From: Abditibacterium sp.
Lineage (GTDB): Bacteria; Armatimonadota; Abditibacteriia; Abditibacteriales; Abditibacteriaceae
Reading direction: 5' to 3'
Length of the DNA: 64,000 nucleotides
NCBI GenBank assembly: GCA_965199495.1
Contig: CBDASK010000003.1
Coordinates: 352,001-416,000, forward strand
Shown here: positions 231 to 63,822 of the stretch, piece after piece
Layout of the letters: the number at the start of each line of letters is the position of its first letter
How positions within the stretch are numbered: position 1 is the first letter of the stretch
Program-made: the position numbers and the translations under genes
The notes under the pieces: generated by a model
What the model was told of the DNA's origin: nothing
The model's input: the letters and a program-made list of their open reading frames with translations, nothing else
The model's database searches: none

Positions 231-1640
231 ATGATACATCCCGTTCTTCTCTGTGGCGGCGCCGGGACGCGCCTGTGGCCGCTTTCGCGCCGCGCGTTGC
301 CCAAGCAATTCCTGCCGCTCATTTCCGATAAAAGCCTGTTGCAAGCGACGCTTTTGCGATTGCGCGGCCTAACTCAGCTCAGCGCGCCCATCGTGGTTTG
401 CTCCAACGATCACCGTTTTATGGTCGCCGACCAGTTGCAGGAAATCGGCATCACGCCGTCCGCGCTGATTCTGGAACCGGTCGCGCGCAACACGGCGCCC
501 GCCGTGGCACTGGCCGCCTTCGCCGCGTTGCAGCGCGATGCCAATGCGCAACTTCTCATTCTGCCCGCCGACCACAACATCGGCGACGTGGCTGCCTTTC
601 ACGCGGCCATTGGCGTCGCACGGCCCCTCGCCGACGAAGGTTATCTAACGACCTTTGGCATCGTGCCCGACAAGCCAGAAATCGGTTACGGCTATATTCA
701 TCAGGGCGAAAAACTGGGCGAAGGCGGCTTCAAAGTCGCGCAGTTCGTCGAAAAACCCGATGCCCAGCGCGCGCAAGAGTATCTCGAAGCGGGCGATTAC
801 CTGTGGAACAGCGGAATGTTTCTGTTTGGCGCCCAACTTTTTTTAGACGAGTTAAATTCGTATCAACCCGAAATTTATGAAGCCACGCGTCTGGCGTTCG
901 AGCGCGCGCAGGTTGATTTAGATTTTCTGCGCGCCGACGAAGCATCGTTCGCCGCATCGCCCTCGATTTCGCTCGATTACGGCGTGATGGAAAAAACTCA
1001 GCGCGCGGCGGTCGTGCCCGCCGACATCGAATGGAACGACATCGGTTCATATGTGGCGATGTGGGAAATCGAGACCAAGGACAAAAACGGCAACGCCGGG
1101 CGCGGGCAGGTCTCGTTTTTCGATTCGTCCAACAATTACGTGCGCACCGAAAAACAGTTGGTCGCCATGCTCGGAGTCGAAGATATGATCGTGGTTTCGA
1201 CGCCCGACGCCCTGCTCGTCACCAAGAAAGAACACGCGCAGGACATCAAGAAAATCGTGGACAAACTGCGCGCGGACGGCCTGTCGCAGCACGACACGCA
1301 CACCAAAGTTTATCGTCCGTGGGGCAGTTATGAAGGCGTCGAGCGCGGCGAGCGGTTTCAGGTCAAGCAACTCATCGTCAAACCGGGCGGCGCGAGTTCG
1401 ATGCAGATTCACCATCATCGCTCGGAACATTGGGTCGTCGTCAAAGGCACCGCCGAAGTGACGTTGGGCGACGAGAAACGTTTACTGTCGGAAGACGAAT
1501 CGATTTATATTCCTCTCGGAATTCCGCACCGCATTTACAATCCAGGCCGCATTCCGATGCACTTCATTGAGGTGCAGTCCGGCTCGTATTTGGAAGAAGA
1601 CGACATCGTGCGCTTGGACGATAATTACGGACGAGGTTAG
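231..1640 (+). CDS. manC: Mannose-1-phosphate guanylyltransferase / mannose-6-phosphate isomerase
   Basis: N-terminal LCGGAGTRLWPLSR..PKQF nucleotidyltransferase motif, FVEKPD and WNSGMF; C-terminal cupin RPWGSY...QIHHHRSEHWVVV. Confidence 0.96.
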   Translation: MIHPVLLCGGAGTRLWPLSRRALPKQFLPLISDKSLLQATLLRLRGLTQLSAPIVVCSNDHRFMVADQLQEIGITPSALILEPVARNTAPAVALAAFAALQRDANAQLLILPADHNIGDVAAFHAAIGVARPLADEGYLTTFGIVPDKPEIGYGYIHQGEKLGEGGFKVAQFVEKPDAQRAQEYLEAGDYLWNSGMFLFGAQLFLDELNSYQPEIYEATRLAFERAQVDLDFLRADEASFAASPSISLDYGVMEKTQRAAVVPADIEWNDIGSYVAMWEIETKDKNGNAGRGQVSFFDSSNNYVRTEKQLVAMLGVEDMIVVSTPDALLVTKKEHAQDIKKIVDKLRADGLSQHDTHTKVYRPWGSYEGVERGERFQVKQLIVKPGGASSMQIHHHRSEHWVVVKGTAEVTLGDEKRLLSEDESIYIPLGIPHRIYNPGRIPMHFIEVQSGSYLEEDDIVRLDDNYGRG

Positions 1641-1688
1641 TTTCGGATAGCGAATTTCAGATGTCGAATTTCGCTATCCTATTTTCTC

Positions 1689-60893: not shown

Positions 60894-63635
60894 ATGAGAA
60901 CTCCCCTGCTCGCGCCCGAATTACTCGCCCTCGCCGTGGCTGCCAGCGCGTCGCTTGCGCTCGTCGCAAGACCGGTGCGGGCGCAAGAAAAGACCATCGA
61001 AACTCCAGAGAAATATATTTTGGCGTTGGGCGAAAAAGAAGTCAAACTGCGCCAAATCGCGCTCAAAACGACAGCGCCCGCCGATGAAACGCCCGCGCCC
61101 AAAGGCGTCGCGACCGCGCCGACGGACACCCCGCGCGCCGACGATGGCGCGCCGATCACGCCGCCGCCCGCGCCCATCACGGCGCCGCAAACTCCGGCGC
61201 CCGCCGCGCCGCCGCGCGATTTGCCCATAGAAAACCCGCCGACGCAGCCCAATACGCAAATCGAAAATCCAAACGCGGTCTTGCCCGCCGCGCCTCTGGC
61301 GGGCGTCACGGTTCCGCCCGCCGCCGATACAGCCACGGCGCCCGATGGCGGGCCAATTGGCAGCGCGCAGGGTATTGATGTGCCGCCGCCGATTCCGCCT
61401 GATTTTACCAACATTCCGTCGTCGCCCGACACCGACATCGCGCAGGGACAGGAAAACCCGAACGGTCAATTCGCCATCGAAGCGCCCGGCGGCGTGATTT
61501 ACGACCGCGAGCGCGGCCTCGCCATCGCCAAGGGCGCCGTCAAATTTACTTATCGCGATTTCACCGTGACGGGCGATCAGGGCGTCATAGATTACAACGT
61601 CAATCGCGCGACTTTAGCGGGCAATTTACAGGTCACGGCGCAGGGCCAAACTTTTCAGGGCCAAAGCCTGACTTTCGATCTCGATACCGGGCGCTGGTTG
61701 CTCTCGTCGGTCGCCAAGACCTTCCCGCCCGAACTGTTTCCGCCCGGCACCGTTTTGGAGCCGCTCTACATTCGCGATGGCCGCGTTTTAGGTCAGGGCG
61801 ACACCGGCATCGGCGAGAATTTCAAGTTCACCAGTTGCGACCGCGACCACTATTATCTCAAGTCGAATCGCATCGAATTTTATCGCGATCCCAACGGCCA
61901 GCCGAAGCGCTTGGTATTGCGCAAAAACGCGCTCTATGTATTGGGTCACAAGGTATTGCCTTTGCCGGTTTATGTTATTGCCCTCGTTGCGGGCGCGGGT
62001 TCGCGGCGCTCGCCGGTCAATGCGACCGTGGGGCAAAACAATGTGGACGGATTTTTCGTGCGCTCGTTTTACGACATCAGCGCGACCAACAATTACACCA
62101 ACTCGGTTTTGGTGGACGCGCTGCAAAAACGCGGTCTGGGTTTGGGTTTGCAGCAGCTCGACGCGGCGGGCGGCGTGCTTTATGCCTACGCGCTTTCGAG
62201 CAAAACCGGGGGCCGCGAAACCAACTTTCGCGTGTTGAAAAACAAGAAGCTCTCGGATATTATCAGCATCAACACGCGCCTCGAATCCACCTCGAACAAC
62301 TCGTTGACTGGCCCCGGCGTGGCCGCTCAAAACGGCGATTTTACCGTCGCGCGCAACGGCGCCAAAGCTCAGACCAACGCGATTTTGCGATTCAACAGTT
62401 CGGATTATAGCGGCGGCAGCAACAACTCCGGCTCATTCTCGCTCGATCATCATCAGGATTTCGGGCGCGGTTTTCGCTTGACGGCGAGCGGCCAGTTGAA
62501 CCAATCGAAAAGTGCGTTCGCTTCAACGGGAGCGGCGCCCACAACCAACGATGCCGCAACGGGCGATTTGAACGTGGAACTGGCGAAAACCACCAAAAAC
62601 TTCGACCTATTTTTGCGCACCGAATTGCATCCCGATTTGGTCAACAACCGCATCAACCAGTTGGAACGTTTGCCCGAACTGACGTTTCAAACCGATTCCA
62701 AACGTTTGCCATTGCCGGTCGTATCGAAATATTTGCCGGGCAATTTCACACTCGGCCTGGGTCAATTCAACGAGCCACGCGCCGTCACTGGCGCCGATGG
62801 CCAAACGGATTTCGCCGGATTAAAAAAAGATCGGGCCGACCTTTTTTATAATTTTAGCGACCGCAGCGCTCGATTGTTGGGTAATGGCCGTTCGACATCG
62901 GTTTTTCGCGCGGGTGGGAACTTTGAACAAGCGTTTTATTCGGATAATTTCTCGCGTTATAACTATGGATATAACTTCAATTTATTGAATACTCTGGGTA
63001 ACTTACAATTACAGGCCAACTATTTTAACACGCGCACTTTTGGCGCGACACCTTTTCAATTCGATTTTTTTACGCCATCAGAAAACGTGGATTATACCGT
63101 CAGTTATAATCTCGGCCAAAAGTTGCGGTTGAATGCAAGCGGTGGCAGCGATTTATATAATCATTATCAGCGCGACTTGATCTTCAACGCGCAGTTCGCA
63201 CCGTCGCCCAATTTTTATGGAAGTCTGGGCACCTCTTACGCCCTCGAAAACTCGAATTTTGGCGAGATTTACGGCAACTTTAATCTGGCGCGCAATCGCC
63301 GCAAGTTTGGCGGCGGCACGCTGGCGTTTGGTTTTCGCTACAATCCCAACGGCCAGGGTTTGACGCGCGCCAACGTTTCGGCGGACGTGAATCTGGGCGC
63401 CAAAACGCGCGTGCAGGGTTTGACGACTTACAACGGTTTCAGCAGCAAATTCGAGTTCTCCCAGATTCGCGTGATTCAGGATTTGCACTGCTTCAATCTC
63501 TACGTCAATTACGACGATCAGCGCAAGCAAGTCCGCTTCGATCTGGCGCTCAAAGCCTTCCCGTTCGCCGACACGCGCTTTGGCCGCAACGTCTTTTCCG
63601 AAGGCTTCGATTCGTCAGTCGGCACGGCGCGGTAG
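60894..63635 (+). CDS. LptD-like outer-membrane protein with a Pro-rich N-terminal linker
   Basis: OstA-like AKGAVKFTY..G.V; FTSCD..HY, LERLPEL and DLHC; beta-barrel-like aromatic periodicity; follows lptF/G. Confidence 0.75.
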   Translation: MRTPLLAPELLALAVAASASLALVARPVRAQEKTIETPEKYILALGEKEVKLRQIALKTTAPADETPAPKGVATAPTDTPRADDGAPITPPPAPITAPQTPAPAAPPRDLPIENPPTQPNTQIENPNAVLPAAPLAGVTVPPAADTATAPDGGPIGSAQGIDVPPPIPPDFTNIPSSPDTDIAQGQENPNGQFAIEAPGGVIYDRERGLAIAKGAVKFTYRDFTVTGDQGVIDYNVNRATLAGNLQVTAQGQTFQGQSLTFDLDTGRWLLSSVAKTFPPELFPPGTVLEPLYIRDGRVLGQGDTGIGENFKFTSCDRDHYYLKSNRIEFYRDPNGQPKRLVLRKNALYVLGHKVLPLPVYVIALVAGAGSRRSPVNATVGQNNVDGFFVRSFYDISATNNYTNSVLVDALQKRGLGLGLQQLDAAGGVLYAYALSSKTGGRETNFRVLKNKKLSDIISINTRLESTSNNSLTGPGVAAQNGDFTVARNGAKAQTNAILRFNSSDYSGGSNNSGSFSLDHHQDFGRGFRLTASGQLNQSKSAFASTGAAPTTNDAATGDLNVELAKTTKNFDLFLRTELHPDLVNNRINQLERLPELTFQTDSKRLPLPVVSKYLPGNFTLGLGQFNEPRAVTGADGQTDFAGLKKDRADLFYNFSDRSARLLGNGRSTSVFRAGGNFEQAFYSDNFSRYNYGYNFNLLNTLGNLQLQANYFNTRTFGATPFQFDFFTPSENVDYTVSYNLGQKLRLNASGGSDLYNHYQRDLIFNAQFAPSPNFYGSLGTSYALENSNFGEIYGNFNLARNRRKFGGGTLAFGFRYNPNGQGLTRANVSADVNLGAKTRVQGLTTYNGFSSKFEFSQIRVIQDLHCFNLYVNYDDQRKQVRFDLALKAFPFADTRFGRNVFSEGFDSSVGTAR

Positions 63636-63822
63636 AATGGGAACAGAACGATGAATTTCGTCGCCTGCATCGCAACCGCTTGGCGCCGTGGCTGCATTGC
63701 GCGCAGTTGTCGCGCCTATGTGACACGCAAAATATTTTCCGAAAATTTGCCCGAACATCTTGCACCAAGCGCGATAACTTGTTAGAATCTAATTCCGTTG
63801 TTTGCACAAGCAAATACGAATT

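Follow-up and report, generated by a model that had tools for sequence, protein, structure and literature searches.

A hyperabundant sequence word with orientation-specific spacing in the chromosome of an Abditibacterium species

Introduction

What is a short, non-palindromic DNA word doing in dozens of copies along a stretch of ordinary chromosome? The question is raised by a 64,000-nucleotide stretch of Abditibacterium sp. (assembly GCA_965199495.1, contig CBDASK010000003.1, positions 352,001 to 416,000), hereafter the window, in which the 9-mer CGTGGCTGC recurs on both strands and mostly inside genes. An earlier note on the window, made from its letters alone, had taken the word for a genome tag resembling the DNA uptake sequence (DUS) of Neisseriaceae and the uptake signal sequence (USS) of Pasteurellaceae, or else for the site of an abundant DNA-binding protein.

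Parts of a 2025 preprint treat self-DNA uptake sequences as a feature of Neisseriaceae and Pasteurellaceae, two proteobacterial families. Our literature search found no paper joining Abditibacteriota with 'uptake sequence', and a second search, on Abditibacterium transformation, competence and repeats, found none that names the genus. Here, the word is followed from the window to the whole chromosome and to related genomes. The central inference of the earlier note stands: this is a genome-wide, strand-symmetric, unpolarised tag at the DNA level, comparable to DUS and USS, in a lineage for which none has been described. In addition, the copies obey a spacing rule that depends on their orientation.

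Materials and methods

Genomes of the library used are designated by G-numbers. The source assembly is G000 (4.81 Mb in three contigs), of which contig C3 is the chromosome (4.72 Mb, 55.75% G+C), and the window corresponds to G000:C3:352001-416000. G011 and G004 are congeners bearing the word and G012 is a motif-less congener. Words of relatives were surveyed in samples of 59-400 kb. Genes were called with a simple self-made codon-score caller, the calls being crude and uncurated, and gave a coding fraction of 85%. The closest relatives of the BipA gene of the window were solely Abditibacterium/Abditibacteriales assemblies, with 99, 92 and 80-82% identity.

Enrichment was assessed against 100 dinucleotide-preserving shuffles of the window, an order-4 Markov model of the chromosome, and 20 within-gene shuffles of synonymous codons, which preserve the proteins and the codon usage of each gene. 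As a control for spacing, 684 kb of non-redundant Neisseria-like metagenome DNA containing 757 DUS 10-mers was used.

Results

The earlier note had counted some 30 copies of CGTGGCTGC in the window by eye. An exact search recovers precisely 30, each where it had been placed, 16 on the forward and 14 on the reverse strand, against a mean of 0.75 and a maximum of 3 in the shuffles. The 8-base core CGTGGCTG occurs 49 times, 44 copies lying within called genes and 5 between them, in line with the claim that copies are mostly genic. Chromosome-wide, there are 1,780 copies of the 9-mer (863 forward, 917 reverse) where the Markov model expects 129, together with 3,083 copies of the 8-mer core and 1,323 of the 12-mer. 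In an unbiased k-mer census, the commonest chromosomal 10-, 11- and 12-mers are CGCCGTGGCT, CGCCGTGGCTG and CGCCGTGGCTGC, respectively.

Alignment of all copies yields C(0.79) G(0.85) V CGTGGCTGC W, with zero information outside these 13 bases, and the full word can be written CG-V-CGTGGCTG-C-W; CGVCGTGGCTGC is non-palindromic. The G that the note had seen two bases 5' of the core is present in 29 of the 30 window copies. The word is sharply defined: of the 13-mer consensus there are 349 copies, a number that one change at positions 1, 2 or 4-10 lowers to 0-15. Position 3 tolerates C, G and A, not T, and positions 12-13 are looser. The one-mismatch variants noticed in the window are real throughout the chromosome, with 536 copies of CGTGGCTGG, 500 of CGTGGCTGT and 267 of CGTGGCTGA.

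Sites of the form CG[ACG]CGTGGCTG number 2,112, and 1,962 of them (93%) are genic, compared with the coding fraction of 85%. The genic sites are divided between the coding strand (1,036) and the opposite strand (926) and occupy all six frames (863, 639, 251, 147, 36 and 26 sites). Several reading frames are indeed used, as had been claimed, and the picture can be sharpened to two main ones: the frame with 863 sites reads x-(A/G/D)-V-A-A and the frame with 639, on the opposite strand, reads A-A-T-(A/P), so that the favoured frames encode Ala-, Val- and Thr-rich peptides. Because GCT and GCA make up just 0.10 and 0.06 of the Ala codons (GCG 0.51, GCC 0.33), the word uses rare Ala codons, again as observed before. 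After shuffling of synonymous codons, 97.6 ± 8.2 copies of the 9-mer are left in genes, compared with 1,641 observed, and 23.4 ± 5.2 copies of the 12-mer CG[ACG]CGTGGCTGC, compared with 1,223 observed, a 52-fold excess. Enrichment persists in every null, Markov and codon-shuffled alike, and the suspected constraint at the DNA level is confirmed. The word tags the bacterium's own chromosome and is specific to its lineage, and both its enrichment and its DNA-level nature are real and strong.

Along the chromosome, the word is not confined to a single domain. Forward and reverse counts are alike in all 16 bins, with no strand polarity there or between complementary arcs, whose forward fractions differ by at most 5 points whichever pair is taken. 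On arcs defined by GC skew, the forward fraction is 0.485 versus 0.500; the skew itself is very weak (a cumulative range of about 6,000 G-minus-C across 4.7 Mb), and no gene-strand bias was found on the tested arcs. Replichore polarity as in Chi or the FtsK-orienting polar sequences (KOPS), which would count against an uptake signal, is thus absent. Spacing is regular and the number of copies per gene under-dispersed.

The word is scarce in mobile DNA; depletion in islands was among the checks that the earlier note had proposed. Two copies of the 9-mer were found on the 64.6-kb contig and one on the 24.7-kb contig, where the density of the chromosome predicts about 24 and about 9, making the word roughly 10-fold rarer on these contigs. 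The larger contig is a phage, encoding a terminase, a prohead protease, a major head protein, a tape measure protein, a tail protein and RecT, while the smaller encodes an anti-restriction gene. On the chromosome itself, 11 motif-free stretches exceed 10 kb, compared with 4.5 expected, and they cluster at 1.12-1.23 Mb. The motif-poor island at this place (C3 1,119,000-1,229,000) encodes type I restriction-modification subunits, a KAP NTPase, a DUF3854 protein, two large serine recombinases, a bacteriophage exclusion (BREX)-like PglX-type methylase with an SNF2 helicase, and a GNAT-PIN fusion.

Neighbouring copies avoid each other in one orientation only. In the pair correlation, the ratio of observed to expected same-orientation pairs is 0.07 below 30 bp, 0.13 at 30-60 bp, 0.15 at 60-100 bp, 0.29 at 100-400 bp, 0.42 at 400-600 bp, 0.65 at 600-800 bp, 0.78 at 800-1000 bp and 0.87 at 1-1.5 kb, and it reaches about 1.0 beyond 1.5 kb. 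For opposite orientations, the ratio beyond 60 bp lies between 0.85 and 1.24; at 30-60 bp it is 0.46 for '+ then -' and 0.93 for '- then +' pairs, and below 30 bp these are enriched 2.2-fold and 3.1-fold, respectively. Among neighbours at most 60 bp apart, 99 pairs are inverted (60 -/+ and 39 +/-, about one-fifth of them intergenic) and 6 direct, and the preference for opposite orientation persists to about 1.5 kb. It is found within single genes (595 inverted and 208 direct neighbour pairs), between different co-oriented genes (327 and 198) and between oppositely oriented genes (191 and 116). Sites with one mismatch are kept away likewise, equally 5' and 3' of perfect sites, so the direction of travel cannot be deduced from them. 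A sample of G011 agrees, with 2 same-orientation and 12 opposite-orientation pairs at 60-600 bp.

A separate observation concerns 11-mer sites at 0.4-1.5 kb, where '+ then -' pairs are mildly in excess (325 versus about 260 expected) and '- then +' pairs are near expectation (282 versus about 260). The former could point to a functional unit with a copy on either side, one on each strand.

The exclusion is not general to abundant words, as none of three controls had a comparable effect. For 44 non-palindromic 8-mers with 2,000-4,500 copies on the same chromosome, the fraction of same-orientation pairs at 100-600 bp is 0.50-0.68, compared with 0.26 for the motif. In the Neisseria-like DNA, no comparable exclusion of DUS was seen at 100-1000 bp, with 271 same-orientation and 293 opposite-orientation pairs (0.48; overall range 0.43-0.50) and, outside close inverted pairs, 71 and 96 (0.43). 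For Chi, the first 100 forward-strand sites of E. coli K-12 were counted by hand: of the 99 gaps between them, 16 are shorter than 1 kb, where 16.9 are expected at random. We found no mention of orientation-specific spacing in main-text passages of papers on DUS and USS.

Since the exclusion acts among same-orientation copies alone, the reader of the word would have to tell the strands apart, and one copy per strand per kilobase would suffice. The spacing rule suggests a reader acting on one DNA strand at a time. Two other models do not fit this spacing: an orientation-blind duplex receptor predicts exclusion in both orientations, and uptake of DNA from one side of the word predicts that convergent, same-orientation and divergent pairs are depleted to different degrees, neither of which is seen. 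Processes acting on one strand along roughly a kilobase would fit, such as the entry of single strands in transformation, resected ends, and a nicking or repair system working on one strand.

Related genomes place the word in a narrow group and indicate how it came about. The 12-mer CGNCGTGGCTGC has 1,350 copies in G000, 1,047 in G011 and 431 in G004, compared with at most 13 in nine other congeners and background numbers in 28 more genomes. The word of G011 is identical to that of G000. Variant motifs in relatives, which the earlier note had envisaged, do occur: the sister species G004 has the dialect TAGGACGTGGCTGGTGTC, in which the core CGTGGCTG is common with G000 and the flanks are TAGGA-CGTGGCTG-GTGTC. 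Core sites of G000 are common with G011 (85% identity) in 45 of 67 cases, with G004 (79.7%) in 26 of 87, and with the motif-less G012 (70.5%) in none of 35. The G012 counterparts are ungapped at 34 of the 35 sites and differ at 1-5 of the 8 bases, as in GTCGCC for the GTGGCT of G000. At these 34 genic sites, the amino acids are kept in 9 cases, one is changed in 8, and two or more are changed in 17. Because the orthologous places are ungapped and differ by base substitutions, the word was formed within sequence that already existed, in part to the detriment of the protein. These alignments show that it arose in place by point substitution. Passages of Findlay and Redfield (2009) describe an origin by substitution, at a cost to the protein, for uptake sequences as well.

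Among 191 sampled sites of G004, 95 lie in close clusters and 96 are single. The clusters are mostly inverted '- then +' pairs with 19-bp stems, variable loops and outer stems, and A-run/T-run flanks; 31 hairpin clusters with both kinds of run were found in 200 kb. On account of these flanks, they look like bidirectional terminators, a role that is predicted. The single sites carry a mixture of G004 and G000 flanks. At about position 160376 of the joined G004 sample, seven tandem arms of the hairpin word with a 19-bp period are followed by an opposite arm.

Three other Abditibacteriaceae have unrelated words at 0.7-1.1 per kb. In G017, which belongs to another genus, TCGACCGTAC occurs 2,981 times in 3.6 Mb, compared with at most 11 times in each of the other 26 family genomes. 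It is mostly part of a 22-bp palindromic unit, GTACGGTCGA-WW-TCGACCGTAC, with a T-rich 3' flank (T-run). In 400 kb of this genome, 96 pairs were counted among 320 sites, 236 of which are intergenic or at gene edges, and single genic copies are found too. In G020, the palindrome W-TCGAGTACTCGA-W occurs at 1.06 per kb, with 62 genic copies among 106, and in G014 the palindrome TGCAAGTACTTGCA at 0.72 per kb, with 24 among 72. Both are built around AGTACT and resemble HIP1, the highly iterated palindrome GCGATCGC of cyanobacteria. As the words of these relatives are palindromic or form inverted pairs, the signal is again present on both strands, which fits strand reading and would also fit a HIP1-like, methylation-linked account. 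No hyperabundant word was seen in samples of G012 (200 kb), G009 (100 kb), G016 (78 kb), G464 (100 kb), G039 (59 kb) and G518 (120 kb). Weaker repeats were noticed on the way: GCTGATGCTG is in slight excess in G012 (25 copies per 200 kb), and in G556 a repeat of about 14 bases, which contains GAATTCCTCTCG, reaches about 20 copies per 100 kb.

Competence genes, to which the earlier note had drawn attention, are present in G000. They include ComEC, ComEA (with SLBB and helix-hairpin-helix domains), DprA and pilus genes, with 8 secretin matches, 8 type IV pilus ATPase matches and 48 prepilin-like genes, none of which is singled out as a receptor. These genes do not discriminate, because ComEC is universal in the family, and ComEC was rejected as the reader on the same ground.

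A recombination enzyme was considered as well. The RecC profile has no match in G000, and the PD-(D/E)XK profile has two, proteins of 299 and 1,421 amino acids, neither of them AddAB-like. Within the reach of these profiles, RecBCD and AddAB were not found and the larger protein, which is Dna2/Bad-like, is the sole helicase-nuclease found. It is encoded at chromosome positions 4,111,365-4,115,630 and combines an iron-staple nuclease domain (C...CxxCx5C, with an intact D...D-x-K) with a superfamily 1B helicase domain. Among solved structures, DNA2 and UPF1 are the best relatives of this protein, and the clusters to which it belongs bear the name 'bifunctional RecB family nuclease/helicase'. In defence and naming profile libraries it has generic helicase-domain matches alone, far under the cut-offs. 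Parts of the published work describe Geobacillus Bad, which it resembles, as a motor that moves 5'-3' on single strands, on average for about 0.9-1.2 kb per run in vitro.

Within the genus, the gene for this protein is found in 3 of 3 word-bearing genomes (G000, G004 and G011) and in 0 of 10 others. Five of 27 family genomes have it, G017 and G016 being the additional ones, as do 15 of 201 genomes in a sample of the phylum. The G011 copy (G011:C5:36235-38371) is split in two, one piece covering residues 708-1121, with a TGA, and the other residues 1115-1421; the first half of the gene could not be located, and the copy may be a pseudogene or an assembly fault. A wider survey undoes the association with the word. 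Four genomes with the gene have a word and four do not (G016, G464, G039 and G518); among genomes without the gene, two have a word (G020 and G014) and two do not (G012 and G009). This tally excludes G038 (a 20-kb sample, too small) and G556 (a broken gene copy and a 20-copy repeat). With four gene-bearing genomes lacking a word and two gene-less genomes having one, the enzyme is therefore a weak lead as a reader. After the fact, the gene was seen to separate all 4 of the asymmetric-word genomes, which have it, from both perfect-palindrome genomes, which do not, a split that is only a lead.

Two further candidates were set aside. The window encodes, at 16041-19163(-), an asymmetric-site methylase of 1,040 amino acids with a type ISP coupler, methylase and specificity domains and no motor or nuclease part. 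It was rejected as the reader, being full-length in the motif-less G009 and present only as fragments in G004. Transposases of the IS200/RAYT type (REP-associated tyrosine transposases, REP denoting repetitive extragenic palindromes) were rejected as the source of the word: there is no correlation, with 11 matches in the motif-less G012 and 0 in G017.

The 30 copies of the 9-mer in the window are given here with their flanked form, strand and gene. The form CGCCGTGGCTGCA is the commonest, at 6200-6208(+) in gene 6089-6793(-), 8829-8837(-) in gene 8724-9503(+), 25379-25387(-) in gene 25268-26656(+), 36555-36563(-) in gene 35931-36803(+) and, between genes, 63687-63695(+). CGGCGTGGCTGCT is found at 7542-7550(+) in gene 7075-8727(+), 31690-31698(-) in gene 31473-32657(+) and 37513-37521(-) in gene 36796-37932(+), and CGACGTGGCTGCA at 16462-16470(-) in the methylase gene 16041-19163(-), 38106-38114(+) in gene 37942-38910(+) and 39927-39935(+) in gene 38918-40021(+). 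Three copies have the form CGCCGTGGCTGCT, at 33494-33502(+) in gene 33452-34609(-), 45492-45500(+) in gene 44772-46904(-) and 52663-52671(-) between genes, and three the form CGCCGTGGCTGCC, at 36281-36289(+) in gene 35931-36803(+), 60935-60943(+) in gene 60894-63635(+) and 46077-46085(+), the last adjoining the opposite-strand core at 46086-46093 to make a palindromic pair. CGGCGTGGCTGCG lies at 19392-19400(+) in gene 19252-20223(-) and at 31257-31265(+) in gene 30478-31476(+). GGACGTGGCTGCA lies between genes at 20967-20975(+) and also at 50882-50890(-), where it forms a close inverted pair with the core at 50896-50903. Single occurrences are CGACGTGGCTGCC at 587-595(+) in gene 231-1640(+), GGGCGTGGCTGCA at 5597-5605(-) in gene 4639-6114(-), CGCCGTGGCTGCG at 30330-30338(-) in gene 29750-30481(+), CGGCGTGGCTGCA at 34245-34253(-) in gene 33452-34609(-), CGACGTGGCTGCT at 36770-36778(+) in gene 35931-36803(+), GGACGTGGCTGCG at 41878-41886(-) in gene 41190-42347(-) and GCTCGTGGCTGCA at 55002-55010(-) in gene 53358-55220(+), the sole copy without G at -2. 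Finally, 51740-51748(-) and 51756-51764(+) are the left and right arms of the inverted pair GCAGCCACGGCGACGGCGTGGCTGC.

The remaining cores of the window lack the ninth base. CGTGGCTG at 11558-11565(+) is intergenic and followed by T. CGGCGTGGCTGGT is found at 12476-12483(-) and 16631-16638(+), and CGCCGTGGCTGTA at 17300-17307(-), 34719-34726(+), 61330-61337(-) and 50896-50903(+), where it is the partner of 50882-50890. The partner of 46077-46085 is TGCCGTGGCTGGC at 46086-46093(-), and GCTCGTGGCTGAT at 23397-23404(-) lies in the BipA gene. The others are CCGCGTGGCTGGT at 19671-19678(-), CGCCGTGGCTGGT at 26302-26309(+), CGCCGTGGCTGTG at 27460-27467(+), CGACGTGGCTGGC at 28356-28363(+), AAACGTGGCTGGA at 28533-28540(+), which has poor flanks, CGCCGTGGCTGTT at 47803-47810(-), TGACGTGGCTGGC at 48240-48247(-), CGCCGTGGCTGAA at 48402-48409(+), CGTCGTGGCTGGC at 54692-54699(+) and CGGCGTGGCTGTG at 58952-58959(-).

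Some other features were seen along with the word. Beside BipA, at 21004-22851(-), the window encodes a protein of 615 amino acids that matches the thiol-activated cytolysin family (E 2.6e-25), in what is an environmental bacterium. A long inverted repeat with arms of about 40 bases occupies 60772-60878, between genes and ahead of gene 60894-63635; TCGGTGTCTCTAC, the word of its arms, has 153 chromosomal copies and therefore represents a separate hairpin repeat family. Outside the window, chromosome C3 contains 131 copies of the repeat GTTTTAATCGGGTCTTGTGAGATTGAAAT with a period of about 65 bp, resembling a large array of clustered regularly interspaced short palindromic repeats (CRISPR), and 119 copies of the 12-mer CTCAGAATGACA.

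Discussion

The explanation we favour, with a probability of roughly 40%, is that the word is a tag for recombination or transformation that propagates itself and is read on single strands. A strand carrying the word 5' to 3' would be kept, processed or integrated more readily than a strand without it. Alleles that create the word would then be over-transmitted by biased homologous recombination, either in natural transformation or in repair between chromosome copies, and the word would invade native genes through point substitutions, as far as the proteins allow. Saturation, at about one copy per 1-3 kb of each strand, would end the spread: once a strand has the word, another copy on it within about 1 kb would bring no gain, while a copy on the other strand would serve that strand. 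In this model, we infer the recombination or transformation step, the drive and the single-strand reading. Such a tag is favoured over a purely structural site because of the extreme enrichment, the origin by substitution, the absence from mobile DNA and the turnover between sister species.

Several points weigh against the self-propagating tag. Uptake, recombination bias and strand reading are all inferences from sequence statistics. Neither of the archetypes, Neisseria DUS and E. coli Chi, shows the spacing rule, so the rule argues for a difference from known systems and against membership among them. A strand-specific function without recombination, such as mismatch-repair nick sites or a methylation-linked system, would produce this spacing too. 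ComEC is present in all 27 family genomes, word-bearing or not, and no candidate reader survived testing, neither the Dna2/Bad-like protein nor the methylase of the window. Universal ComEC and same-orientation exclusion somewhat weaken the part of the claim that concerns uptake.

Of the alternatives, a HIP1-like or methylation-linked function holds up best, though we regard it as unlikely. The word would be the site of a methyltransferase, a repair nickase or a restriction-related system acting on one strand of an asymmetric site, and with an enzyme that works on one strand, neither orientation could stand in for the other. Methylase and restriction genes abound in the genome, and the perfect palindromes of the relatives G020 (TCGAGTACTCGA) and G014 (TGCAAGTACTTGCA), which occur in genes and spacers, consist of typical restriction-site blocks. 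However, known methylase sites specify about 4-7 bases, whereas the word has 11-12 and its G004 form about 18, and the asymmetric-site methylase of the window does not co-vary with the word. Moreover, we know of no case in which repair bias of the very-short-patch type yields a 50-fold enrichment of a 12-mer.

A classical DNA uptake sequence, in which a receptor such as a ComP-like minor type IV pilin binds the duplex word and uptake drives its spread, is rather improbable, even though much of the evidence has the right form. Density, strand symmetry, depletion in mobile DNA, the dialect, the terminator-like inverted pairs of G004 and the frame bias are all as expected, pilus and ComEA/ComEC/DprA genes are present, and the word spacing near 1.5 kb is similar to the DUS spacing given in passages of Treangen (2008). 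Against this stands the spacing rule. For an orientation-blind receptor, a neighbour in either orientation would be redundant, whereas exclusion here affects the same orientation only; passages of Bakkali (2007) describe uptake as independent of orientation, and 684 kb of DUS-bearing DNA has no comparable spacing effect. In addition, ComEC is universal in the family and the words are not.

Control of the Chi type is a decidedly doubtful possibility. Here, a helicase-nuclease, for which the Dna2/Bad-like protein of 1,421 amino acids is the candidate, would start at a DNA end and go on degrading until the strand along which it moves presents the word. Wordless DNA would be destroyed or converted, so that the word would mark self and spread. 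The first-hit logic of such a one-way enzyme would make same-orientation copies redundant and opposite-orientation copies independent, and the characterised homologue Bad runs for about 0.9-1.2 kb on average. No RecBCD or AddAB was found with the two profiles used, leaving this protein as the only helicase-nuclease found. Within the 13 genomes of the genus, its gene is limited to the three with the word, and it also occurs in G017, which has an asymmetric word of its own. Yet the three congeners form one clade, so the match between gene and word counts as a single event, and it is lost on wider sampling, with gene-bearing genomes lacking a word and G020 and G014 showing the reverse. The G011 copy is broken, the word has no replichore skew, 100 Chi sites of E. 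coli show no same-strand exclusion, and the word is longer than any known Chi.

Very unlikely, in our view, is a binding site of an abundant chromosome-organising protein, maintained by ordinary selection with no role in recombination. The regular spacing and the under-dispersed copies per gene are what such a site would have. Some 1,300-3,000 sites that run against codon preference and often change amino acids would nevertheless require a benefit per site unseen in known nucleoid proteins. Quick replacement between sister species and absence from most congeners are hard to square with a core structural role, and a duplex binder leaves an orientation-specific exclusion over 1 kb unexplained.

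The last alternative, that there is no signal and the word is a by-product of codon or peptide bias or a remnant of mobile repeats (REP or miniature inverted-repeat transposable elements, MITE), has next to no chance of being correct: the main frames do give common Ala- and Val-rich peptides and the genome does have IS200/RAYT-type genes, but this account is refuted by the 52-fold excess after codon shuffling, the spread over several frames and both strands, flanks that are uninformative past 13 bases, and a 93% genic location with substitution-derived copies in ungapped orthologous alignments, and the RAYT-type genes do not track the words.

A broader and more speculative reading, to which we give little credence, would extend the self-propagating tag to the family. 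Abditibacteriaceae would then harbour a class of tags not seen before, fast-evolving and self-propagating, with lineage-specific words on both strands at about one per 1-3 kb, read on single-stranded DNA by a one-way recombination enzyme. In lineages with asymmetric words and without RecBCD/AddAB, this enzyme might be the Dna2/Bad-like protein, and the system would be a strongly driven counterpart of Chi in function. The class would comprise asymmetric alternating words (G000), inverted pairs (G004, G017) and perfect palindromes (G020, G014).

These results present a clear analogue of a self-tag in a distant and barely cultured lineage, one that turns over between sister species. The spacing rule, which has not been reported for DUS or USS, constrains the mechanism towards a strand-discriminating reader satisfied by one copy per kilobase. 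Orientation-resolved spacing is a simple statistic by which hyperabundant words can be sorted into orientation-blind and strand-specific ones. Furthermore, the words mark native as opposed to acquired DNA and could aid the binning of metagenomic contigs, and they could help in designing transformation tools for this phylum, where genetics is all but absent.

Among known systems, DUS, USS, HIP1 and Chi are the closest. According to parts of the DUS literature, where the signals are 10-12 nt long, occur in dialects and have ComP as receptor, DUS and the word have in common a non-palindromic form of about 12 nt, a density of about one per 1-3 kb, an occurrence on both strands that is free of replichore bias, rarity in mobile DNA, dialects of species groups, preferred frames and terminator-like hairpins of inverted pairs, found here in G004. 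The hallmarks of DUS and USS that are seen here are density, strand equality, enrichment beyond coding, depletion in mobile DNA, dialects and competence genes. Systems of this kind are further defined by a gain in uptake or transformation and by a dedicated receptor, ComP or a predicted ComN. Unlike DUS, the word belongs to another phylum and has another sequence, is 93% genic and is known from sequence alone, and its same-orientation copies exclude each other below about 1 kb. The orientation independence of DUS and USS is thus not found, the ratio of observed to expected being 0.07-0.8 for same-orientation pairs below 1 kb and about 1 for opposite ones.

The USS of Pasteurellaceae, with a 9-nt core plus flanks, is likewise mostly genic and relatively evenly spaced, and has close inverted pairs in two spacing classes. 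In H. influenzae, 69 -/+ and 40 +/- pairs within 14 bp are given in passages of the USS literature, compared with the 60 and 39 within 60 bp in G000; the sequence is unrelated.

As in HIP1, a hyperabundant short word runs through genes and spacers and has lineage-specific variants, the G020 and G014 palindromes being the closest match, whereas the word of G000 is longer and non-palindromic. Chi (GCTGGTGG in E. coli; Chi sites are 5-8 nt long) is read by RecBCD on single-stranded DNA, and it too is an asymmetric word marking self-DNA, whose mode of reading is the strand-specific one proposed here. Chi, however, is modestly enriched and co-oriented with replication, in contrast to an enrichment of about 50-fold with no skew in a genome in which RecC was not found. 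The hairpins of G004 and G017 resemble REP and bacterial interspersed mosaic elements (BIME), mobilised by RAYT, in being abundant and mostly intergenic inverted repeats. By contrast, the copies of G000 are single, intragenic and made by substitution, the loops and outer stems of G004 vary, and RAYT genes do not co-vary with the words; with 1,962 of 2,112 sites genic and zero information past 13 bases, the pattern is not that of REP, BIME or MITE. Nor is it that of KOPS or architecture-imparting sequences (AIMS), given that no polarity was found in 16 bins or any pair of arcs. Taken together, these comparisons suggest a word of the DUS, USS, HIP1 and Chi kind, with an added strand-specific spacing rule, in a lineage without described tags.

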